From Armatimonadota bacterium (lineage in GTDB: Bacteria; Sysuimicrobiota; Sysuimicrobiia; Sysuimicrobiales; Humicultoraceae), in the NCBI GenBank assembly GCA_037446215.1, contig JBBIJB010000068.1:1-11747 (forward strand): a stretch of 11,747 nucleotides of DNA, in the 5' to 3' direction. This document shows positions 1-11,747 of the stretch, one piece after another. Each line of letters starts with the position of its first letter. The first letter of the stretch is position 1. Below the pieces are notes generated by a model that made no database searches, had not been told where the DNA came from, and saw only the letters and a list, made by a program, of their open reading frames with translations. Both the position numbers and the translations under genes were made by a program.

Positions 1-980
1 ACGCTGCGCGAGAGCACCACGCCCGAGATCGGCGAGGTAAGCACCGCGTTGGCCCGCACCGCCAGCGCAAGCCGCAGCGCCGCCTCGGCCTGGGCGAGCG
101 CGGCCCTGGCGGCGGCGAGCTCCTGCTCCCGGGCCGCGACGAGGTCGAGCGAGGCCCTCGCGCCCGCGGCAGCCGCCTCTGCCTGGCCCGCGCCTGCCTC
201 GGCCACAGCGACGTCGCCCCTGCGGATCTTGACCTGCCGGGCGGCCGCCTCGGCGAGCGCGAGCGCGGCCCGTGCCTGCTCCACCTGCCTGGAGGCGGCG
301 GCTTCCTGGGCCGCCGCCGCGGCCTCCTGCGCGGCGAGCACCTCGACCGCCGCCTTCGCGGCATCCACTGCCTGGGCCGCTATCGCGCCCTCACGGTGCA
401 GGGCGCCTGCGCGCGCGAGGTCCCCTTCCGCCTTCCTCAGGCCGGCCCGTATCGCGGCGCGCCCGGCCGCGGCCGACTTCGACCCCGCCTCCGCGACCTC
501 CAGCGCTGCGCGGGCAGAGGCGATCTGCTGCTCGGACTGGTCCTGCTGGAGGAGCACGGCCTCCCTGGCCTGGGGCACGCGCGCATCGGCTGCGGCCTTC
601 GCCGCCTCTGCCTGGTCCACCGCCGAGGCCGACTGCCTGCGCTGCATCCGCAGCGCAACCTCGGCCTGGCCGACCCGCACGCGGGCCGCCGCGACCGCGG
701 CCTCTGCCTGGGCCACCTGCGCATCCGCCTCGCTCGTATCGAGACGGACCAGCACCGCTGCCTGCTCTACGCGGTCGCCCGAGGCGGCCAGGATCTCGCT
801 GATCCGGCCCGGCGTCTTGGAGGCGACGTAGATGCCGGTCGCCTCGATCGTGCCCGAGCCCTCGATGTAGTCGCCGTCGGCCCTGTCCCGAACGGAGAGC
901 CGAAACGCCCCGTAGGCGGCGAGCGCCAGGAGCAGGAGGATCGGGACGAGCGGAACGCGGCGGCCGTGGATCGTGACCAT
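1..980 (-). CDS. HlyD/YbhG-family periplasmic adaptor (membrane fusion protein), 3' end runs off the window
   Basis: Not in the ORF track; translated by hand from ATG at 980: MVTIHGRRVPLVPILLLLALAAYGAFRL (membrane anchor), IEGSGTIEA, VASKTPGRISEILAASGDRVEQAAVLVRLD (first lipoyl half), a long Ala/Glu/Gln coiled coil, then AVLTSPISGVVLSRS (second lipoyl half). SD TAAGGAGG overlaps the TolC stop codon. Confidence 0.9.
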   Translation of the reverse strand, partial: MVTIHGRRVPLVPILLLLALAAYGAFRLSVRDRADGDYIEGSGTIEATGIYVASKTPGRISEILAASGDRVEQAAVLVRLDTSEADAQVAQAEAAVAAARVRVGQAEVALRMQRRQSASAVDQAEAAKAAADARVPQAREAVLLQQDQSEQQIASARAALEVAEAGSKSAAAGRAAIRAGLRKAEGDLARAGALHREGAIAAQAVDAAKAAVEVLAAQEAAAAAQEAAASRQVEQARAALALAEAAARQVKIRRGDVAVAEAGAGQAEAAAAGARASLDLVAAREQELAAARAALAQAEAALRLALAVRANAVLTSPISGVVLSRS

Positions 981-990
981 GGCGCCCTCC

Positions 991-2343
991 TTACTCCACC
1001 GGCCCTCCCACCGCACGCTCGAGCTGGGCGCGCGCCAGGTTGACACCGAACAACGCCTGCATCCAGCCGGCGTGCGCCTGGGAGAGGATCGCGGCCGCTG
1101 TGACTACCTCGAGGTTGGTGGAAACCCCGGCGGCGAAGCGGACGTTGGCGATCCGAAGCCCCTCCTCGGCCTGCTCTATCGTCTTCTGGGCGGCGTCGAG
1201 CTCCTCGCGCGCCGAGCCGAAGTTCAGCAGGGCGCTGCGGACCTCGAGCTCTATCCCCTGACGCAGCTGTGCCTCGGCCGCCTTGAGCTGCTCGATCCGT
1301 GCCTCGGCCTCCTTGATCCGCTGCGCCGTGGTCCCGGCGTCGAAGAGCGTGAGCGTCGCCGCCAGCGTGACCGCCCATCCCGTCGCCAACGCGCCGGCCG
1401 TGTTGCCGTAGTTGGGGCCGGCCGCGAGGCTGACGGTAGGGCGGCTCCCGGCGCGCGCCAGCTCCATCGCGGCCTCTGCCGCGGCCAGGCGCGCCTTGTG
1501 CTCGGCCAACTCGGGCCGGGCCTCCAGCGCCCTGCGGATCAGCCCGGCGGCCTCGCTCCTGATCGGCACCACCGTCATCGCCTCGCGCGGAGCTATCGCG
1601 GTGTCCAGGGCCAGGCCCATGAGCGCGTTGAGGCCGTGGCGGGAGAGCGCCACCGAGTTGCGCGCCCTGATCAGCCCCTGGCGCGCACCCGCGAGGTTGG
1701 CCTCTGCCTGGACCTCGTCGAACTTGGGCGACGCGCCCGCGGCCACGCGCGCCTTTGCCACGCGCAGGTTCTCCTCGGCGGCGGCGACGGTGCGTGAGGC
1801 CACCTCCACGCCGCCGAAGCCGAGCAGGAGATGGTAGTAGGCAACCTTGACGTCGAAGACAAGCTGCTGCCTGGATCGCTCGAGCGCCGCCTCCGCGCCC
1901 TTCAGGCTTGCCCTGGCCAGGGCGACCTGCGACTCGATCCGCCCGCCGGTGTAGAGCGGCACCTGGTACATAAGCGACGCCGAGTAGACGTTGGGATCGG
2001 GCGGCGGCAGGGTGATCGTGATCGGGACGTCTATTCCGGGAATCGTGCCGGGAGGGATCACCATCGCGCTTCCGGCTCGCTCGTTGATCCTGGTGTAGGA
2101 GGCGGAGAGCACTACCTGCCCGCCGCGGGCGGCCTCGGCCTGGGCGAGCTGCGCCTTGGCCGCGGTCACCTCGAAGGCGGCCACACGCAGGCCGTGGTTC
2201 TGCTGCGCGGCCAGGGTGAGGGCCTCGACCATCGTGATAGGCCTCGCCGCCTGTCCCGCGGCAGGCGTTGCGGGTACGAGCAGCCCCACAACAAGGAGGG
2301 CCGCTGCTCCCAGCCCCATCGCGCGGCGCGTTGTCGTCTTCAT
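991..2343 (-). CDS. TolC/OEP-family outer-membrane efflux channel, 450 aa
   Basis: Sec-type signal peptide ending ..PATPAAG; two OEP repeats (YQVPLYTGGR..AYY and LTLFDAG..RFAAGVSTNLEV..LERAVG); SD GGAGG upstream of ATG; directly upstream of the adaptor gene. Confidence 0.92.
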   Translation of the reverse strand: MKTTTRRAMGLGAAALLVVGLLVPATPAAGQAARPITMVEALTLAAQQNHGLRVAAFEVTAAKAQLAQAEAARGGQVVLSASYTRINERAGSAMVIPPGTIPGIDVPITITLPPPDPNVYSASLMYQVPLYTGGRIESQVALARASLKGAEAALERSRQQLVFDVKVAYYHLLLGFGGVEVASRTVAAAEENLRVAKARVAAGASPKFDEVQAEANLAGARQGLIRARNSVALSRHGLNALMGLALDTAIAPREAMTVVPIRSEAAGLIRRALEARPELAEHKARLAAAEAAMELARAGSRPTVSLAAGPNYGNTAGALATGWAVTLAATLTLFDAGTTAQRIKEAEARIEQLKAAEAQLRQGIELEVRSALLNFGSAREELDAAQKTIEQAEEGLRIANVRFAAGVSTNLEVVTAAAILSQAHAGWMQALFGVNLARAQLERAVGGPVE

Positions 2344-2344
2344 A

Positions 2345-3103
2345 TCATCCTCCGTCCGTATGCTCCAGCGCCTGGCGGACCGCCTCCAGGTTCTCGGGCC
2401 GGTCGGCGTCCACGTCCAGCACCAGCTCGGGGCCGTCGAGTATCACGGCGCGCGCCTTCACGCCCGCGATCTCCTCGGCGCGCCTCTCCACCTCGGCGAT
2501 CGCCAGCCGTCCCGAGGCGAACTTCATTATGGTCGCCATGCCGAACATCTGGGCGAGCTGCCAGGGCTTCTTTCGGGCCGAGATCATCTGCTCGATGAGG
2601 GGCTTGACCCTCTCGATCACCTCGAGGGAGACCACCATCGCGCTTCCCCCACAGAACATCCCGTCTGCCAGCCTCACGTAGGTCTTGCGGGCCGTGGGGA
2701 AGCGGCGCTCTACCGCGGCCTGGGTCGCGACCGAGTAGTAGAAGTCGGCGTCGCCGGCGCACCTCGCGAGGAAGCCTTCGACCGCCTCCGCCGTCACAAG
2801 GGGAAGGTCGGAGGCAAGCGCCAGGACCTTCCCGCTGCCGCCCAGGTGTGCGGCGGCCGCCTCGATGTTTCCGACCAGCGTCTCCCGCTCCGGGACCAGC
2901 TCTATCGAGGGGTCGAGGATCTCGGCCAGCGGCTCCGTCGGACCGACAACGACCACGCGGTCGATCGCGCCGCAGTCGAGAGCCGCACGGGTGACCCTGA
3001 CCACCAGCGGGATCCCGCCTATCGCCAGGAAGGCCTTGTTGGGCAGGCCTGGGGCGAGCCGCGGCTCGGGGCCGCCTCCGGCCAGCACCACCGCGGCGGC
3101 CAC
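2345..3103 (-). CDS. MobA/IspD-like (GT-A fold) nucleotidyltransferase family protein of unknown substrate, 252 aa
   Basis: Start reassigned to GTG at 3103, overlapping the ispE stop (TAGTG), with SD GGAGGAG. Motifs VVLAGG..PRL..NKAFLAIGGIPLV, SDLPLV and C-terminal LDVD. Confidence 0.85.
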   Translation of the reverse strand: MAAAVVLAGGGPEPRLAPGLPNKAFLAIGGIPLVVRVTRAALDCGAIDRVVVVGPTEPLAEILDPSIELVPERETLVGNIEAAAAHLGGSGKVLALASDLPLVTAEAVEGFLARCAGDADFYYSVATQAAVERRFPTARKTYVRLADGMFCGGSAMVVSLEVIERVKPLIEQMISARKKPWQLAQMFGMATIMKFASGRLAIAEVERRAEEIAGVKARAVILDGPELVLDVDADRPENLEAVRQALEHTDGG

Positions 3104-3969
3104 TAGCGCTCCTCCGCGAAGGTGCGCTCGACGTGGACGTCCACGCCCTCGACCGAGGAGAGCTCCTCTGCCACGTGCCGGGCGGCCGCCTCGTTCGCCA
3201 TCAGGCCGTAGACCGTGGGACCGGTGCCGCTCATGCAGGCGCCGTAGGCCTCGCCGCGCAGCACGCGCGCCTTCAGATCGAGGATCAGCGGGTGGTGACC
3301 GGCGACGACCTCCTCGAAGACGTTGCCGAGCAGCCGTCCCAGCGCCGGCACGTCGCCGCCCCGTACCGCCTCGGAGATCATCGGGATGCTCGGCCTGTTC
3401 TCGATCGACTCGGGCTTGAGCTTCTTGTAGGCCCACTCGGTCAGCACCTGCACCCTGGGCCTGGCCAGCACCACCCAGGTAGAGGGCAGCGGGGGAAGCT
3501 TCTGCACCCTCTCGCCGCGGCCCCTGGCCAGCGCCGCGCCGCCGGTGAGGAAGAACGGGACGTCCGAGCCCAGCCGGCCGGCGAGCGCATGCAGCGCGCG
3601 TCCGTCCAGGCGCAGCTTCCAGAGCTGCGCGAGCCCCATCAGCGTCATCGCGGCGTCGGCGCTGCCACCGCCCAGGCCGGCCGCCACCGGGATCCGCTTG
3701 GAGAGCTCTATCTCGACGGGCCGCTGTACGTCGAACTGCTCGCGCAGCAGGGCCGCCGCGCGATAGACGATGTTCTCCTTGCCGGAGGGGACCGTTTCGC
3801 CGGTGGAGGTGAAGGCGATCCCTTCCCCGGCCTCCCTCAGCGTGATCTTGTCGTGAAGGGAGATGGTGTGCAGCACCGTCTCCACTTCGTGGAACCCATC
3901 GTCCCTGCGGTAGAGCACATCAAGCCCAAGGTTCACCTTCGCGTAGGCGTTGAGGTGCAGCTCCTTCAC
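3103..3969 (-). CDS. ispE: 4-(cytidine 5'-diphospho)-2-C-methyl-D-erythritol kinase, 288 aa
   Basis: AKVNLGL, IPVAAGLGGGSADAA (GHMP ATP loop), GSDVPFF, GRGE, MSGTGPT. Start reassigned to GTG at 3969 (SD GGGAGG, 8-nt spacing). Confidence 0.96.
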   Translation of the reverse strand: MKELHLNAYAKVNLGLDVLYRRDDGFHEVETVLHTISLHDKITLREAGEGIAFTSTGETVPSGKENIVYRAAALLREQFDVQRPVEIELSKRIPVAAGLGGGSADAAMTLMGLAQLWKLRLDGRALHALAGRLGSDVPFFLTGGAALARGRGERVQKLPPLPSTWVVLARPRVQVLTEWAYKKLKPESIENRPSIPMISEAVRGGDVPALGRLLGNVFEEVVAGHHPLILDLKARVLRGEAYGACMSGTGPTVYGLMANEAAARHVAEELSSVEGVDVHVERTFAEER

Positions 3970-3994
3970 TATTCCGGCCTCCCATGGTGAAGTG

Positions 3995-4020
3995 GCGGCA
4001 CCTTCAGAGTTAGGTGCCGC
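3995..4020. repeat. Perfect 9-bp inverted repeat upstream of ispE
   Basis: GCGGCACCT (3995-4003), 8-nt loop, AGGTGCCGC (4012-4020); no adjacent T-tract on either strand. Confidence 0.7.
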
Positions 4021-4056
4021 GGGCCTCAAGTCCTCTCGGGCGCGGCGCCGGCTTCG

Positions 4057-4085
4057 TTGCGCGCCGATGGGGCTTTGCGTAATAT
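4057..4085 (+). promoter_or_regulatory. Putative sigma70/sigmaA promoter of the lcp gene (leaderless geometry)
   Basis: TTGCGC (4057-4062), 17-nt spacer, TAATAT (4080-4085); the GTG start lies 6 nt after the -10 box and has no SD. Confidence 0.6.
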
Positions 4086-4091
4086 GGACCC

Positions 4092-5507
4092 GTGGATCCG
4101 GAGCGCGAGCGGGACAACCAGGAGATCGAGGCCCCGGGACGGGAGGCGGTAGGGCCGCCCGTGCCGGGCCCGGAGGCCGCGCCCCGGCGCGGCAGGCGCT
4201 GGCTGCGCTGGATAACGTGGGGCGTGCCTCTCCTGGCCCTAACCATGGGCGGGATCGCGCTCGGGCTCTACATCTATGTGCTCAGCCAGGTCACGGTGGG
4301 CACCGGCGAGGTGGCCGTCCGCGGAGGGGCGGCGGAGGCGTTCGGCTGGCCGCTGCGGCTGACCGAGCGGGTGAACATCCTCCTGATAGGCATCGACGAG
4401 ACGCTGGACAACAGGCGGAGGGTGGTGAACGTGGCGCGGGCCGACACGCTCCTTCTCGCCACCTTCGACGTCGAGCGCGATAGGATGGCAGCGCTCTCGA
4501 TACCGCGCGACACGCGGGCCGAGATCCCGCGCTTCGGGGTCCAGAAGATCAACGCCTCCTACGCCTACGGAGGGCCGCGGCTGACGATAAGGACCGTGGA
4601 GCAGCTGGTGGGCGTCGAGGTTCACTACTACGTCAAGCTGGGCGCGAACTCGTTCTCGCGCCTGATAGACGCGGTCGGTGGGGTCGAGGTCGAGGTAGAC
4701 AGGGACATGAAGTACACCGACTCGTGGGCCGGGTTCCGGGTAGACCTGAAGAAGGGCCGCCAGAAGCTTACCGGCGAGCAGGCGATGGGCTTCGTGAGGT
4801 TCCGCAGCGATCCGCTCGGCGACATAACGCGGGTGGACCGGCAGCAGAGGGTCCTGATGTCGCTGCTCGCGCAGCTGCGCCAGCCCTCGACGGCGCTCGC
4901 CGCGCCCTCCCTGCTGAAGGCGTTCGCTGAGAACACCGAGACGAACCTGACGCCCGCCCAGCTGATGACGCTCGGGTTCTTCGCCATGACCGCGGACGGC
5001 GCGCCTCTGCGCGCGATGACGCTTCCCGGGATCATAGACGAGCTCTACTACGTGCCCGACGCGGCCAAGGTCCGGGAGGTAGTGGCCGAGATGTTCTACG
5101 GGGTCACCACCGAGGAGATCGCCGGAGCGCAGATCGAGGTGGTGAACGCGAGCGGAACCTCCGGGCTGGGGCGGCAGGTAGCGGCGCGGATTGAGGCGCT
5201 CGGCTTTCGGACCATATCGGTCCGGGCCTCGGAGACGATCGAGGAGAGGACCACCGTGATCAACAGGACCCCGCGCAAGGGGTTCTCGCGGATGATCGCC
5301 CGCACGCTGGGCAAGGTCCAACTCCTGGAGGAGGAGCCGACCGAGGGTCCGGCGGTGACGGTGGTGGTGGCGCGCGATGCGGTTCGCGGGGCCTACAGGA
5401 TGGAAAAGCGTCAGCGGCCGCCTGCTGCCGAGTTAGGCCGGGCCGCTCCCGAAGGAGTACCTCCTCCCATCTCAACCAGCCACGTACCGCTGACGGTGCA
5501 AAGGTAG
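4092..5507 (+). CDS. LCP (LytR-CpsA-Psr) family glycopolymer transferase with C-terminal LytR_C domain, 471 aa
   Basis: One N-terminal TM helix; NILLIGID, RADTLLL, LSIPRDT, KINASY, FVRFR.D..GDITRVDRQQ; LytR_C motif IEVVNASGTSGLGRQVA..IEALGF. Confidence 0.93.
   Translation: MDPERERDNQEIEAPGREAVGPPVPGPEAAPRRGRRWLRWITWGVPLLALTMGGIALGLYIYVLSQVTVGTGEVAVRGGAAEAFGWPLRLTERVNILLIGIDETLDNRRRVVNVARADTLLLATFDVERDRMAALSIPRDTRAEIPRFGVQKINASYAYGGPRLTIRTVEQLVGVEVHYYVKLGANSFSRLIDAVGGVEVEVDRDMKYTDSWAGFRVDLKKGRQKLTGEQAMGFVRFRSDPLGDITRVDRQQRVLMSLLAQLRQPSTALAAPSLLKAFAENTETNLTPAQLMTLGFFAMTADGAPLRAMTLPGIIDELYYVPDAAKVREVVAEMFYGVTTEEIAGAQIEVVNASGTSGLGRQVAARIEALGFRTISVRASETIEERTTVINRTPRKGFSRMIARTLGKVQLLEEEPTEGPAVTVVVARDAVRGAYRMEKRQRPPAAELGRAAPEGVPPPISTSHVPLTVQR
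5404..5494 (-). ncRNA. Putative ~90-nt structured RNA (sRNA or attenuator), antisense to the lcp 3' end; family not recognised
   Basis: Begins 6 nt after a -10 box. 5' GUCAGCGG (5494-5487) pairs with CCGCUGAC (5417-5410); internal CUCC-UUCG-GGAG hairpin; UUUU at 5407-5404. Confidence 0.45.
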
Positions 5508-5530
5508 CACGACCCCTCGAAATCCGTCAA
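5501..5530 (-). promoter_or_regulatory. Putative sigma70/sigmaA promoter pointing into lcp in the antisense direction
   Basis: TTGACG (5530-5525), 18-nt spacer ending in extended -10 TGc, TACCTT (5506-5501). Confidence 0.6.
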
Positions 5531-5552
5531 TCCGAAACCTTTGTTCCCTCCC

Positions 5553-5570
5553 TGTGGATAGTGTGGACAG
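5553..5570. promoter_or_regulatory. Two abutting DnaA-box-like 9-mers
   Basis: TGTGGATAG-TGTGGACAG; reverse complement CTGTCCACA-CTATCCACA. Each is 1 mismatch from TTGTCCACA or TTATCCACA. Confidence 0.45.
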
Positions 5571-5573
5571 CCG

Positions 5574-6779
5574 CTAGAGACTGCGCTTGACTATCCTCGC
5601 GATCCTGGCTATCCCCTCCCGGATCTCCTGCTCGGAGGGATAGGAGAAGTTGAGCCGCATCGTGTTGGCGCCGCTGCCGTCCGCGTGGAAGGGCCTACCA
5701 GCGACGTACGCCACGCCCTCCTCGTCGACGGCGACGCGGAGCATCGCCATGGTGTCCATCCCCTCCGGCAGCCGCACCCAGAGGAAGAGGCCTCCCTCGG
5801 GGCGCGTCCAGGTGACGCCCGCCGGCATCTCCCTCGCGAGCGCCTCGACCATCACGTCGCGCTTGTGGGCGTAGAGGTCGGTCACCTGGGGAAGCCTGCG
5901 GAGCAGGTCGCCTGAGGCAAGCAGCTTCGCGGCTATCGCCTGCGTGAACGACGGGCAGCAGAGGTCCATCGACTGCTTGGCGGTGACGCACTCGGCTATG
6001 ATCCGCTCGGGGCCCGCTATCCAGCCGATCCGCAGCCCGGGCGCCAGCGTCTTGCTGAACGTGGACAGGTAGACGGTTCGCCCGCCCTTATCCATCGCCA
6101 TCACCGGCGGCGGGGCCGCTCCGGCGAAGCGCATCTCGCGATAGGGATTGTCCTCGACTATCAGGCAGTTGAACTCGGAGGCGAGGTCGAGCAGCCTCCT
6201 GCGGCGCTCGAGCGTCCACGTGATCCCCGATGGGTTCTGGAAGTCGGGCACCACGTAGAGGAACTTGGGGCGGCGGCCCTTGCGCCTCAGCCCCTTGAGG
6301 GTCTCCTCCAGCGCCGAGGTGTCCATGCCGTGGTCGTCGGCCGGGATGCCGATCATCTCCACGCCGTAGGCGCGGAAGGCCTGGAGGCCCCCGAGATAGG
6401 AGGGAAGCTCCACGACGATCGCGTCCCGGGGGTCGAGGAAGATCCTCCCCATCAGGTCCAGTGCCTGCTGGGAGCCCATCGTGATCAGGATGTTGTCGCG
6501 GCCTACCTTGATGCCGTCCTTCGCCATCCACTTGACCAGCTCGTCGCGAAGGTTGGGGTCGCCGTCGGAGGGCCCGTACTGGAGCGCCAGGCCCGCGTTG
6601 GCGGACAGGATCTGATCGACGGCCTTCCCGAGCTCGGCGACCGGGAACGTCGACGGATCAGGGAAGCCGCCGGCGAACGAGATTATGTCCTTGTGCCGCG
6701 AGAGCTTGAGCATCTCCCTAATGAGCGACCGCTCCGACCTCCGCGCGGTAGCGGAGAGGAGCGGCTCGAACTCGATCAT
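5574..6779 (-). CDS. PLP-dependent aminotransferase class I/II (LysN/aromatic multi-substrate type, no HTH), ~401 aa
   Basis: FAGGFPD, LQYG, GSQQALDL, PDFQNPSG, EDNPY, STFSKTLAPGLRIGW (PLP lysine), GGLFLW, RLNFS. ATG 6779 preferred over GTG 6791 on SD spacing. Confidence 0.92.
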   Translation of the reverse strand: MIEFEPLLSATARRSERSLIREMLKLSRHKDIISFAGGFPDPSTFPVAELGKAVDQILSANAGLALQYGPSDGDPNLRDELVKWMAKDGIKVGRDNILITMGSQQALDLMGRIFLDPRDAIVVELPSYLGGLQAFRAYGVEMIGIPADDHGMDTSALEETLKGLRRKGRRPKFLYVVPDFQNPSGITWTLERRRRLLDLASEFNCLIVEDNPYREMRFAGAAPPPVMAMDKGGRTVYLSTFSKTLAPGLRIGWIAGPERIIAECVTAKQSMDLCCPSFTQAIAAKLLASGDLLRRLPQVTDLYAHKRDVMVEALAREMPAGVTWTRPEGGLFLWVRLPEGMDTMAMLRVAVDEEGVAYVAGRPFHADGSGANTMRLNFSYPSEQEIREGIARIARIVKRSL

Positions 6780-6803
6780 CCGGGCACCCACCCTCTAGGG
6801 ACG

Positions 6804-7709
6804 CTATGTCTTCCCCTGTGGAGTTCTTAGGCGGTCGTCGCGCGGTTCCCTGTCGTGGAAGGCCTCGGCCAGCCTGGCGAACTCCGCCACTGACAGGCTC
6901 TCCCCCCTTCGCCTGGGATCGATCCCGGCCAGGCCGCAGGCCCGCTCGACCTCGGCCGCGGACGGCCGCCCCGGCCCGCCGCCCAGCCGGCCCCCGGCCG
7001 CCTGGAGCGCCGACCGCAGCATCTTGCGTCTCTGGCCGAACGCGGCGCGGACCACTTCCATGAAGTGGGGCATCGCCTCCAGAGGCACCGCCGGCTCTCC
7101 GCCGACCTCGAGGCGCACCACGCTGGAGGCGACCTTGGGCGGCGGGAAGAACGCGGTCCTCGGAACGCTCATGACAGCGTGAGGGGTGGCGCGGGCCTGG
7201 ACGACCACCGAGAGCAGGCCGTACTCCTTCCCGCCCGGGGGTGCCGTGATCCGGTCGGCCACCTCCCTCTGCACCATGACGACCATGCGCCGCGCGGTGT
7301 CGGCCAAGAGCAGGTTGATCAGCAGCGGGGAGGCGATCGAGTAGGGCAGGTTCGAGACCACCTTGGTGGCGCCGACGGCGCGCAGCTCCGCGGCGGTCAA
7401 CTCCATGGCGTCGGCCTGCATGATCCGGACTTGTGGGTAGGAGCGGCAGGCGGCCCGCAGCGCCGGGATGAACCTCCGGTCCACCTCTACCGCCACCACG
7501 GCAGCGCCCGTGCGCGCCAGGGCCACCGTTAGCGTGCCGATCCCAGGGCCTACCTCGAGGACGGTGTCGTCTGGACCCGCCTGAGAGGCGGCGACGATGC
7601 GGTCGAGCACGTGGCGGTTGACAAGGAAGTGCTGCCCGCGCGCGCGGTGGAGGCGGAGACCCATGGCCGCCAGGACCGCCCGGACCCCGGTGGGCGTGAC
7701 GAGGTCCAC
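6804..7709 (-). CDS. rsmA: 16S rRNA adenine dimethyltransferase RsmA/KsgA, 301 aa
   Basis: GQHFL, EVGPGIG, VEVD, SNLPY, MVQREVA, FFPPPKVAS, FGQRRK; usual position downstream of yabE. Confidence 0.96.
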   Translation of the reverse strand: MDLVTPTGVRAVLAAMGLRLHRARGQHFLVNRHVLDRIVAASQAGPDDTVLEVGPGIGTLTVALARTGAAVVAVEVDRRFIPALRAACRSYPQVRIMQADAMELTAAELRAVGATKVVSNLPYSIASPLLINLLLADTARRMVVMVQREVADRITAPPGGKEYGLLSVVVQARATPHAVMSVPRTAFFPPPKVASSVVRLEVGGEPAVPLEAMPHFMEVVRAAFGQRRKMLRSALQAAGGRLGGGPGRPSAAEVERACGLAGIDPRRRGESLSVAEFARLAEAFHDREPRDDRLRTPQGKT

Positions 7710-7726
7710 CTCGGGTAGATGCGGCG

Positions 7727-8722
7727 TTACTTCGACCTCGCCTGCGGCGAAGAGAGGATGTAGACCCGCACCGGCCTGCGGCCGAAGCGATAGGCCTCCT
7801 TCGCGGTGTTGAAGCCGAGGTCGATCCGGTGGCCCTTGATCGCGCCGCCGGTGTCGCCGGCGACCGCCCGGCCGTAGCCCTCGATGAACAGGCGAGAGCG
7901 CAGCGGGATCACCCGCGGGTCGACCGCCACCACGCCGTAGCCCGCGCGGAGCCCGATCGCCGTGGTTCCGTCCACGCCGCGGCCGTGCCAGGGAGCGTAG
8001 GCCGTCGCCTCCATGTGGACGATCTCCTTGCCGGCGAACTCACCGCGCGTGGCGAACATCCTGCGCGTGCCTACCTGCATTATGCGGTCCTGCGGCGGCT
8101 GCAGCAGCGCCTCGCTCAGCAGCTGCCGCTCGATGACCGCGCCGTCCGCCATGGTGACCGCGACCCGCCGCAGCCGCACGCCCGGCCTGCCCTGCTGAGC
8201 CACGCGGGTCATGCCGCGGGGCAGCGTCGCGTCGGGCCTGGAGAGGCGCGCGTAGGGCACACGCTCCTCCCTGCTGACGATCCTAGTCTCTATCCGAACG
8301 ACCCGAACGGCCGCGCCCGGCCTGAGCACGGCGTCCATGACAGGGTAGACCCTGTCCCGGGGCCGGAGCCGGATCCCTGCCTCGCCCAGGAGCTCCTCGA
8401 CCGTGGCCGAGGCGGTCGTCATCGCGCGCTTCTTCCCGTCGGCGACCAGGGTGACGCCGAAGGAGCGGCGCACGACTATCCTCAGCCCTGTCTCGAGCCG
8501 TGTATCCAAGGACGGGGTGACCCTGTCCTTGGCCCGGAGCCTGATGCCGGACTCCTCCAGCACCTCACCCACCGTAGTCCGGTAGGTCCAGGCCTTGAGG
8601 CTCTTCGAGCCGGCCTGCACCACGACGGCCTTGGGAAGATGCGCAGTGGCCGCGGCGCCCAGGGCCATCGTGGCTGCCACGACGAGCCCGGCCGGCACCA
8701 AGCGGAGCCTGCAAAGGCGCAT
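7727..8722 (-). CDS. yabE: YabE/SpsB-like secreted cell-wall enzyme (2x DUF348, G5, 3D domain), 331 aa
   Basis: SD AGGAGGTGA before ATG 8722; hydrophobic N-terminus; two TV.E.L.E.GIRLR..DRV.P repeats; G5-like segment; 3D domain ATAY..VAVDPRVIPL..GDTGGAIKG.RIDL with all three Asp. Confidence 0.9.
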   Translation of the reverse strand: MRLCRLRLVPAGLVVAATMALGAAATAHLPKAVVVQAGSKSLKAWTYRTTVGEVLEESGIRLRAKDRVTPSLDTRLETGLRIVVRRSFGVTLVADGKKRAMTTASATVEELLGEAGIRLRPRDRVYPVMDAVLRPGAAVRVVRIETRIVSREERVPYARLSRPDATLPRGMTRVAQQGRPGVRLRRVAVTMADGAVIERQLLSEALLQPPQDRIMQVGTRRMFATRGEFAGKEIVHMEATAYAPWHGRGVDGTTAIGLRAGYGVVAVDPRVIPLRSRLFIEGYGRAVAGDTGGAIKGHRIDLGFNTAKEAYRFGRRPVRVYILSSPQARSK

Positions 8723-8867
8723 CCCCTCACCTCCTGTCGTCTGGAAAGCCGGGGCCGGCAAATGCTCGCCGCCCGCTGATCGAACTGATGGCCGGACAGA
8801 TCGGCGGACCGCCCTCCGGCCTGGGACGGCCCTGATCTGGCATCAGGGTAGGATGGTGGATGTGACC
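8723..8867 (-). promoter_or_regulatory. Putative structured 5' leader of yabE-rsmA-aminotransferase
   Basis: Non-coding ~145 nt with several complementary segments: CUGAUG/CAUCAG, CAGAUC/GAUCUG, GGGCCGUCC/GGGCGGUCC, or alternatively CCCUGAU/AUCAGGG and GGCCGGA/UCCGGCC. Confidence 0.45.
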
Positions 8868-8882
8868 TCGACCATCTTACCC
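8846..8882. repeat. 12-bp imperfect inverted repeat over the predicted yabE -10 box and start site
   Basis: GGGTAGGATGGT (8846-8857), 13-nt spacer, ACCATCTTACCC (8871-8882); 11 of 12 positions complementary. Confidence 0.65.
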
Positions 8883-8902
8883 GTTCCCGGGGGCCAGGGC
8901 AA
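8874..8902 (-). promoter_or_regulatory. Putative sigma70/sigmaA promoter of yabE-rsmA, embedded in the end of meaB-mce
   Basis: TTGCCC (8902-8897), 17-nt spacer, TAAGAT (8879-8874). Confidence 0.55.
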
Positions 8903-10276
8903 TATCCGGGCCCGGCTCCATCAGCTCCACGAGGACCCCTGAGGTGGTCTTGGGGTGGAGGAACGCGACCCGCGCGCCGTGGGCGCCGGGCCTGGGAGCG
9001 GCGTCGATGGGCTCGAAACCCGCGCCCCGGGCTGCTTCCAGCGCCCTCTCCACGCTCGGCACCACGACCGCCACGTGGTGGATCCCCTCGCCCCGCCGCT
9101 CCAGGAACCTGGCGATCGGGCCTTCGCCGGAGAGAGGCTCCAGCAGCTCGATGGTGGCCTCGCCGAGCGGGACGAAGGCGACCCGCACCCCCTCGGAGCC
9201 GAGGCTCTCGGGCTCTCCCACCTCAAGGCCCAGCACCTCGCGGTAGAACCTGGAGGCCGAAGTGACGCTGCGGACCGCGACGCCGATGTGGCCTACGCGG
9301 ACGGGCCGCCGCGGCCCCTGCGCCAGGCGGGGCGCGGCATGGCCGACCAGCAGCCGGGAGGCTGCTCGTGGGTCGCTCTCGCCGGAGGCTACAGAGCCCA
9401 CGAGCCGCTCCAGGTCGGAGGGCGAGAGCGCGTCCAGGAGCTGTGAGCGCAGCGACGCCTCGGCTAGGCGCAGGATCTGCCTTCGCCACCGCTCGCGCCT
9501 GCGCCGGTCCAGCGCGCCGCTCGACCCCTGCGCGGCCCGGTGCTCCGAGATGGCGGCGAGCATCCTGGGGACCCCTTCTCCCGTGGTCGCCACCGTGGTC
9601 ACGACCGGCGGCCGCCACCAGGAGTCCGGCGTCATCTCGAGCATCATCTTCAGGTCGCTCACCGCGCGGTCGGCGTCGGCACGGTCGGCCTTGTTTACCA
9701 CGAAGAGGTCGCCTATCTCCATCACGCCCGCCTTGATCGCCTGCACCCCGTCGCCGAGCCCGGGAGTGGTGACCACCACCACCGTGTCCGCGGCCGACAT
9801 CACATCCACCTCGGCCTGCCCGGTGCCCACGGTCTCGATGAAGATCGTGGAGGCGCCCCAGGCGTCGAGCACGGCCGCGGCCTCGCCGGTCGCAGGTGCC
9901 AGCCCGCCGAGGCTGCCGCGGGTGGCCATCGAGCGGACGAAGACCTCCGGGTCGGTGCTGTGGTCCTGCATCCTGACGCGGTCGCCCAGCAGGGCGCCGC
10001 CCGAGAAGGGGCTGGTGGGGTCGATCGCCACGACGCCGATCCGCTCGCCCGCCGCGCGGAGGGCGCGCACCGCGGCGTCCACCAGGGTGCTCTTGCCCGA
10101 GCCGGGGGGGCCTGTCACCCCGACTATGTAGGCGCGCCCGGTGTGGGGGAAGAGCGCCCGCATCGCCTCCTCCGCCGCCGGGCCGTTGTTCTCGACCAGG
10201 CTTATCAGGCGCGCCGCGGCCGCGGCGGAGCCCGCGACCACCTGGGCGGCGAGCCTGCCTGCGCGATCGGCGTCCA

Positions 10277-10277
<1 letters not shown>
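8877..10277 (-). CDS. meaB: MeaB/ArgK (MMAA) G3E GTPase fused to methylmalonyl-CoA epimerase (VOC fold), 466 aa
   Basis: ATG 10277 overlaps the mutase stop (TGATG). MeaB motifs GPPGSGKST, AIDPTS, LGDRVRM, ETVG, NKAD; then in frame the epimerase motifs HIGVAV, IELLEP, EGIHHVA, FLHPK..GVLVEL. Confidence 0.92.

Positions 10278-11747
<1,470 letters not shown>

Follow-up and report, generated by a model that had tools for sequence, protein, structure and literature searches.

Among the described bacterial RNAs, the one closest in kind to the RNA reported here is the 6C RNA of the Actinobacteria. Its Corynebacterium glutamicum representative (cgb_03605) is short, structured and stable, occurs throughout the phylum and has a housekeeping-type promoter (PMC5014011); the same text describes an approximately twofold increase with mitomycin C, a nearly threefold increase without LexA and a link to cell division (PMC5014011). 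The small RNA DinR of Klebsiella pneumoniae, which depends on a LexA-controlled promoter, blocks the translation of ftsZ and ties the SOS response to division; it is an Hfq-dependent fragment of a 3' untranslated region (UTR) and not a free-standing gene (PMC10907235). CcnA of Caulobacter crescentus is a non-coding RNA integrated into the regulatory circuits of replication and cell cycle (PMC8959179). Here, we analyze a predicted RNA gene of Candidatus Sysuimicrobiota (CSP1-3), an uncultivated phylum for which a relative abundance of up to 22.64% in soils is reported (PMC11604079). The gene lies in a stretch of 11,747 nt (assembly GCA_037446215.1, contig JBBIJB010000068.1, positions 1 to 11,747 of the forward strand, deposited as Armatimonadota bacterium), which we call the window and to which all plain coordinates refer. 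It is situated there on the minus strand, between the convergent genes for an LCP-family protein (lcp, plus strand) and an aminotransferase (minus strand). On the comparisons presented below, the RNA, previously undescribed and outside Rfam 15, constitutes a new family, though not a new kind of RNA.

The likeness to 6C RNA is one of kind, since both RNAs are short, structured, phylum-wide and preceded by a housekeeping-type promoter. In sequence and fold, however, the two are unlike: descriptions of 6C give two hairpins whose loops are C-rich, whereas the present RNA, from another phylum, is predicted to form one rod with a purine-rich internal-loop core, and the DnaA-box look-alikes that precede it have no counterpart in the 6C account consulted. 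Unlike DinR, it has its own promoter, exposes no conserved seed and comes from a genome with no Hfq above cut-off; its control by LexA is putative. In architecture it resembles the bacterial signal recognition particle (SRP, or 4.5S) RNA, which is likewise a hairpin of about 100 nt with paired ends and an invariant internal-loop core near its tip, and likewise near-universal in its clade. That core is the protein-binding site of SRP RNA, but the two core sequences are unrelated and the present RNA occurs in up to three copies per genome. CcnA belongs to another phylum and to other regulators (CtrA/GcrA). In their main texts, two genomic papers on the phylum make no mention of small RNA, sRNA, non-coding or riboswitch; one of them mapped the rRNA-depleted metatranscriptome of a chemoautotrophic enrichment, but onto protein-coding genes alone (PMC11604079).

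The minus strand of the segment 5494-5404 (91 nt) folds as one rod at -48.5 kcal/mol (z = -3.99, with 1 of 200 shuffles folding as well), as against just -33.1 kcal/mol (z = -2.0) for the plus strand. The comparison set comprised 94 genomes in families labelled f1 to f7, within which class, order and phylum coincide. A MAFFT alignment of 27 copies, from which two genomes flagged as unpublished (G015 and G024) were excluded, yielded with RNAalifold a rod of 30 pairs, and this rod was made into a covariance model, R1. Because R1 scores 100.5 bits on the minus strand versus 26.2 bits on the plus strand, and because a G-U pair of the core is kept in 63 of 63 aligned rows, we place the RNA on the minus strand.

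R1 matches 84 of the 94 genomes, with one to three copies each (82 of 92 without the two flagged genomes, both of which match), and 52 of the 54 genomes that are at least 90% complete. By family, and leaving aside the window's own genome (G000; 2.16 Mb in 149 contigs, 91% complete), the matches number 31/33 in f1, 22/22 in f2, 18/23 in f4, 11/12 in f5 and 1/1 in f7, with 0/1 in both f3 and f6; the scores are lowest in f4. The 171 bases from 5560 to 5390 are single copy in G000 and are matched at 74-91% DNA identity in 24/24 genomes of the same family, with partial matches in two further families, as compared with an amino-acid identity of just 48-72% for the flanking proteins across genera. 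A strict pattern for the core, run on one genome each from 185,579 species, found 65 loci, 58 of which match R1; such a scan sees only the copies that fit the pattern, and divergent relatives are invisible to it. The titles of the 58 include Candidatus Sysuimicrobiota, "Armatimonadetes bacterium CSP1-3", "Bacillati bacterium ANGP1" and, among the genera, Ca. Sysuimicrobium, Fervidifonticultor, Geohabitans and Calidihabitans. Sysuimicrobium and species of the other three genera are named in the description of the phylum, in one class and one order (PMC11604079). Among the loci that fit this pattern, an occurrence outside the phylum was rejected, since the 7 of 65 loci titled as other phyla all fail R1 (at most 15.7 bits with the filters off), as was viral carriage, the three pattern matches on viral contigs all failing at 13.8 bits. 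A repeat or mobile element is ruled out by these failed viral matches together with the single copy in G000. As judged by comparison, the RNA gene is vertically inherited across the whole of Candidatus Sysuimicrobiota.

In an alignment of 64 copies made with the model, standard pairs fill 96.2% of the cells versus 81.7% in shuffles, 22 of the 30 pairs show compensatory changes on both sides and the covariation score is reached by 0 of 500 shuffles; if the partners are slid by one to three columns, pairing falls to at most 50% of cells. In the closing stem (P1) there is covariation at six of nine pairs; UA, for instance, becomes CG in 28/63 rows and AU becomes GC in 15/63. An alignment fitted to the model favours the structure, but the effect is still large and is visible also in the plain MAFFT alignment; three rows (L092, L122 and L143) appear to duplicate places in G015 or G024.

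From base to tip, the predicted rod consists of the closing stem, variable middle helices, the core helix, a tiny internal loop, three pairs and the apical hairpin. The closing stem is GC-rich across copies (G[CU]C[AG]GCGG with CCGC[CU]G[AG]C). The core helix contains one R-A mismatch and the invariant G-U pair (G5468-U5435), whose G-C neighbour is replaced by A-U in nine rows; the switch is seen in family f4. In the internal loop AG(n) faces GG, with a bulged A. The apical loop varies among copies (UUCG, GCGA, GGAA or GAAA), and in a 113-116-nt form found in family f2 the apical hairpin is about 30 nt longer; within the genus of the window, copy length differs by single nucleotides (84, 85 and 86 nt). 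The conserved nucleotides are all situated within helices or in the internal loop of 2-3 nt, and the sole large loop, the apical one, is variable.

Much of this architecture had been noticed in a sequence-only reading of the window, which drew attention to a minus-strand TTGACG-N18-(TGc)TACCTT, to an expected start at G5494 that is also the first base of an 8-bp arm, GUCAGCGG (5494-5487), paired with CCGCUGAC (5417-5410) and directly followed by GCUUUU (5409-5404), and to a C(UUCG)G hairpin. Direct reading of the sequence confirms all of these, the hairpin as CUCC-UUCG-GGAG. The third helix that was proposed, GCUGGUUG/UAACUCGGC, does exist, but its register is slightly off the one supported by covariation, in which GCUG pairs with CAGC and UUGAG with CUCGG. 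The central suggestion, an independently transcribed small structured RNA on the minus strand that has its own promoter between two convergent genes, is supported.

The same reading could assign the RNA to no known family, and our searches agree: Rfam 15 at gathering thresholds has 0 matches in the whole window; with E up to 10, the interval 5300-5650 gives only three chance-level eukaryotic or viral matches (10-15 bits); and 17 diverse copies searched with E up to 1 give only neighbouring tRNAs. There is no tRNA or tmRNA within the window; elsewhere, three RNA copies (L019, L077 and L085) have a tRNA gene nearby, at a distance of about 50-900 nt. Several individual candidates were also discarded. 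The SRP RNA (RF00169) is found elsewhere in G000, at G000:C65:93-192 with 73.4 bits, and a search of 21 genomes, G000 among them, detected it in 18; 6S RNA (RF00013) is on another contig (G000:C77:4271-4453, 56.6 bits). A Y RNA was rejected for want of a TROVE match in G000, which is 91% complete, and of an Rfam match, and 6C RNA for want of an Rfam match and for the single rod with its UUCG or GNRA apical loop. A CsrA sponge or an Hfq-dependent RNA was likewise set aside, there being no CsrA in G000 and an Hfq only below cut-off.

Conservation extends beyond the RNA into its presumed promoter. The alignment shows a conserved (C)GGATTGAC, a free spacer, a conserved TGnTAnnnT and then 6-7 free bases, after which conservation starts again precisely at the first base of the closing stem. 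Of the 64 copies, 52 have the arrangement TTGnnn-N17/18-TAnnnT-N6/7-(+1), with TGn in 41 of these, as compared with 2 of 640 control windows; eleven copies of the long f2 form have TTGACC-N17-TGGTAGAAA instead and one f4 copy has neither. No other gene of G000 has the same promoter module, GTTYCGGATTG followed by AC occurring once, here. The comparison thus shows a housekeeping-type promoter (TTGAC, N17-18, TGnTAnnnT) that is predicted to start transcription at or next to G5494. At the other end, the ten nt after P1 contain on average 5.06 T over the 64 copies versus 1.60 in controls, and five or more T in 62.5% of copies versus 1.7% of controls. A GC-rich 9-bp stem and a U-rich tail, which an intrinsic terminator would require, are conserved, but the stem encloses about 67 nt.

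Coordinates of the RNA gene, its candidate control elements and the two adjoining genes (positions in the window; offsets relative to the inferred +1)
Feature	Position	Strand	Remarks
lcp gene	4092..5507	+	LytR_cpsA_psr and LytR_C (Pfam); last ~35 codons cross the RNA gene
U-rich tail GCUUUUCCAU	5400..5409	-	follows P1; inferred 3' end; T enrichment over 64 copies
RNA, 85-nt rod-shaped hairpin	5410..5494	-	from inferred +1, G5494, to the end of the closing stem; R1 100.5 bits
Conserved core, 3' strand CGGCCCGGCCUAACUC	5430..5445	-	CCCGGCYUAAC near-invariant phylum-wide
Apical hairpin CUCC-UUCG-GGAG	5446..5457	-	variable in sequence and length; stem pairs covary
Conserved core, 5' strand GAGAUGGGAGGAGGUA	5458..5473	-	near-invariant, consensus GRUGRGAG(n)GAGGUA
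Closing stem P1, 5' strand GUCAGCGGU	5486..5494	-	pairs with 5410-5418
Extended -10, TGc-TACCTT	5501..5509	-	18-nt spacer from -35; six bases to G5494
-35 hexamer TTGACG	5525..5530	-	(C)GGATTGAC conserved across families, spacer not
Palindrome GAAC-AAAG-GTTT, GAACAAAGGTTT	5535..5546	-	-52 to -41; ends 4 nt before -35
DnaA-box look-alike 2, CTATCCACA	5553..5561	-	-67 to -59; head-to-tail with box 1
DnaA-box look-alike 1, CTGTCCACA	5562..5570	-	-76 to -68; 8/9 match to TTGTCCACA (consensus)
Class I/II aminotransferase gene	5574..6791	-	Pfam Aminotran_1_2, E = 1.8e-46; upstream on the RNA's strand

When the 95 bases 5' of 54 copies were lined up, two further modules became apparent upstream of the promoter. 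The first consists of look-alikes of the DnaA box, whose consensus is TT[AG]TCCACA. In the window two of them begin 3 nt beyond the stop codon of the aminotransferase gene. The octamer T[GA]TCCACA has 45 occurrences in G000, and these two boxes are the only pair within 60 bp. With one mismatch allowed there are 282 boxes and a single cluster of three or more, at C22:17646-17875, in low-GC non-coding DNA some 1 kb upstream of dnaA, which is probably the origin of replication or a control region of dnaA. Outside this cluster, the one-mismatch search gives no adjacent pair other than boxes 1 and 2, if two self-overlapping palindromes are left aside. The cluster holds the same 9-mers, CTGTCCACA and TTATCCACA, together with one-mismatch variants, and so the look-alikes, which stand close to the RNA promoter, resemble the boxes of the genome's own origin-like cluster. 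Between -130 and -37, one or more boxes occur in 34 of the 54 copies and two or more in 21, versus 2 and 0 of 54 control windows from the same loci. The positions are fixed, at -76/-67 in f1, at -86/-77/-68 in the long form of f2 and at -79 or -73 with -62 in f4, and in 33 of the 34 box-bearing copies every box is on the strand of the RNA.

The second module is a palindrome, RAAC-N4-GTTY, which begins between -53 and -49 in 41 of 54 copies versus 0 of 54 control windows. Its core, present at just 28 places in G000, is shared with the SOS box of the phylum: in 30 of 30 recA loci, from five families, there is exactly one C[GA]AAC-N4-GTTTG upstream of recA. The full box CGAAC-N4-GTT[CT]G is found at six places in G000, including recA, lexA, the start of ruvC-ruvA-ruvB and an mrfA-like DEAD-box helicase; at recA it lies between TTGACA and TATTCT. 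The two modules move with the RNA gene whatever the context. What is unusual in this RNA gene, as judged from its sequence, is the position of tandem DnaA-box look-alikes beside an SOS-like palindrome, and the retention of either module alone in paralogous copies. Two side observations touch on the SOS system itself. G000 contains two genes with a LexA DNA-binding domain (C16:22205 and C22:4775), of which only the first has CGAAC-N4-GTTTG upstream; a variant site, for example the palindrome of the RNA promoter, could be the target of the second. In addition, a perfect CGAAC-N4-GTTCG between TTGACA and TATAAT at G000:C59:13565 (L189, about 3066-3079, minus strand) precedes a 211-aa frame without a Pfam match, a candidate for a new SOS gene that perhaps encodes a division inhibitor.

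What comparison of the copies shows, then, is a predicted phylum-wide structured RNA gene, vertically inherited and independently promoted. We regard it as rather probable that its product is an independent, stable and probably protein-binding RNA, the transcription of which is tied to the state of replication or of DNA damage. Transcription would start at G5494 from the housekeeping-type promoter, the closing stem and U-tail would terminate the transcript and this transcript would fold as one long rod with a near-invariant internal-loop core. It would act in trans as a stable scaffold that binds a protein or a ligand, and not by base pairing; a scaffold is preferred to a seed-pairing regulator because the conserved nucleotides are buried in helices or in the small internal loop and no seed is exposed. 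DnaA, on two or three head-to-tail boxes (about -86 to -59), would act on the promoter, and LexA, or a related repressor or paralogue, on the GAAC-N4-GTTY palindrome would shut it off. The layout suggests that DnaA and LexA (or a paralogue) could set the level of the RNA and in this way link it to replication or DNA damage.

A number of observations weigh against parts of this scheme. Ten genomes (59-96% complete) have no R1 match, and two of them, G077 and G079 of family f4, are both 96% complete. Consensus scans report neither a promoter nor a terminator here: TACCTT fits only three of the six positions of TATAAT, and a closing stem around some 67 nt, which differs from the textbook intrinsic terminator, is outside the rules of a simple scan. 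The promoter and U-tail nonetheless convince us because they are conserved (52/64 versus 2/640 for the one, 5.06 versus 1.60 T for the other), not because they are consensus-like. On the side of the regulators, a 9-bp head-to-tail spacing is unusual for DnaA arrays. The palindrome of the RNA reads G-GAAC...GTTT-C and is without the outer C...G of all 30 recA boxes; it lies just upstream of the -35, while the recA box is between -35 and -10 and the ruvC box directly after the -10. The copies of f5 and f7 (0/9) have neither boxes nor palindrome, the short f2 copies have the palindrome only (4/4) and three of the four second copies of f1 have the boxes only. Finally, among the possible protein partners sought in G000 (91% complete), there is no TROVE/Ro protein and no CsrA, and Hfq remains below its cut-off (25.6 versus 27 bits).

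A bolder version of this proposal would make the RNA the effector arm of a phylum-specific checkpoint for replication and DNA damage, in which DnaA and LexA jointly set its level and its core binds a protein of replication, repair or division. The RNA would then form a ribonucleoprotein dedicated to regulating the cell cycle, and the paralogous copies would keep one input, either the boxes or the palindrome. We offer this only tentatively and think it rather unlikely.

An alternative that we judge to be about as doubtful is a trans-acting, base-pairing small RNA, induced by damage or replication stress, which would repress one or a few mRNAs near their ribosome-binding sites in the manner of DinR and ftsZ. 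The RNA has its own promoter and U-tail, as do the classical small RNAs, and the SOS-box-like core in its promoter would accord with such an induction; there is also, in DinR, the precedent of an SOS-linked RNA that blocks the translation of ftsZ (PMC10907235). Pairing of the purine-rich GGGAGGAGG strand with pyrimidine-rich targets is conceivable. However, the highly conserved nucleotides are without exception in helix or in an internal loop of 2-3 nt; because they are paired or buried and the sole sizeable loop is variable, there is no conserved, exposed seed. The Hfq of G000, moreover, is not above cut-off.

Considerably less probable is a cis-acting element, be it an antisense RNA of lcp, as the sequence-only reading had thought possible, or a leader or attenuator governing read-through into a downstream gene. 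The lcp frame was followed as far as its stop codon in 20 relatives that have an lcp match, excluding L005 (contig edge), L019 and L026-L030 (no lcp) and the flagged L015 and L022. In all 20 the stop lies beyond the 3' end of the RNA, the distance being 6-8 nt for 11 relatives and 18-492 nt for the other nine; only in the window, one genome of 21, does the frame run through the RNA (5404-5507, plus strand), to a stop 13 nt upstream of the RNA 5' end, and it is there some 95 nt longer than in the relatives. The same-genus relatives have a TAG 6-8 nt beyond the RNA, at which point this genome has an extra T. We therefore best read the overlap as a lineage-specific read-through caused by the loss of a stop codon, or possibly as an assembly error. 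With 0 of 20 relatives showing a coding overlap, and with lcp not a neighbour outside f1, the only family in which the order aminotransferase/RNA/lcp is kept, a cis-antisense regulator of lcp was rejected, although an lcp 3' UTR could still overlap the RNA in the 11 relatives with a nearby stop. Nor does the earlier caveat hold that the -10 might be a by-product of the lcp stop codon: lcp stops elsewhere in 20/20 relatives and the -10 is still there. The supposedly unstructured tail of lcp beyond LytR_C is correct in so far as the Pfam domains end at residue 429 of 471, but it is a read-through peculiar to this genome; across relatives it is the promoter and the stems that are conserved, and the lcp frame ends short of them.

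The contexts outside f1 also bear on the possibility of a leader. A survey of neighbours outside the main f1 locus (58 proteins at 29 loci) found Pyr_redox_2 (divergent) and GcpE/IspG (downstream) in f5; an ANTAR response regulator or PCMT upstream and NadE downstream of the long form of f2; an M20 peptidase (convergent) or TilS (downstream) in f4; CtaA-CtaB upstream of the second copies of f1; and ThyX in f7. The 113-116-nt form stands downstream of the ANTAR response-regulator gene, by Pfam at L140 and L115, and upstream of nadE; at L109, L112, L138 and L148 a frame of about 190-200 aa is in the position of the ANTAR gene, as judged by size and position only. Some of these arrangements would suit a leader: in f5 the RNA is followed on its own strand by gcpE/ispG, at 25-55 nt, in f2 by nadE and at two f4 loci by tilS. 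However, the neighbours differ from family to family, f1 and most of f4 have no same-strand gene downstream, no gene accompanies the RNA consistently, and its structure and promoter are the same in these unrelated contexts. A riboswitch or cis leader was accordingly rejected, the downstream genes being either inconsistent (gcpE, nadE, tilS) or convergent (lcp, M20 peptidase, thyX).

It is very improbable that the conserved entity is not primarily an RNA at all but a DNA element (such as a site that titrates DnaA or controls replication), the C-terminal peptide of lcp or a small protein, for although DnaA-box look-alikes adjoin the gene and a 19-codon RUG...UGA frame is present in 13 of 64 copies, the compensatory pairs and the invariant G-U pair are signatures of an RNA on one strand, the small frame ranges from 4 to at least 30 codons with its start codon absent in 3/64 copies, copy length shifts by 1 nt within a genus and the lcp frame of relatives does not reach over the element.

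Some other genes of the window deserve mention. The locus is surrounded by genes for an IspE-like GHMP kinase (3103-4029), KsgA/RsmA (6804-7709) and an Rpf-like DUF348-G5-3D protein (7727-8761), all on the minus strand. The arrangement resembles the rpfB-ksgA-ispE neighbourhood of the Actinobacteria, except that lcp, the RNA and the aminotransferase are inserted in it. On the same strand, a 792-aa frame at 8877-11255, with MeaB and a glyoxalase/epimerase domain, overlaps by about 1 kb the frame of a methylmalonyl-CoA mutase (10277-11725); its true start is probably internal, near residue 340. At 991-2343 (minus strand) a TolC-like outer-membrane efflux protein (OEP, E = 4e-57) adjoins the LCP-family gene, a juxtaposition that bears on the type of cell envelope of this uncultured phylum.

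The predicted RNA is one of the first regulatory elements to be defined for Sysuimicrobiota and is a ready candidate for a new Rfam family. It would also serve as a marker in the annotation of these genomes, including that of lcp genes wrongly extended over it. If the inputs from DnaA and LexA are true, its promoter would sense the status of both the replication initiator and the SOS response, which is rare for a small RNA. It would then offer a parallel to the still unexplained 6C RNA, and a second system in which the role of phylum-wide, SOS-linked RNAs may be studied.

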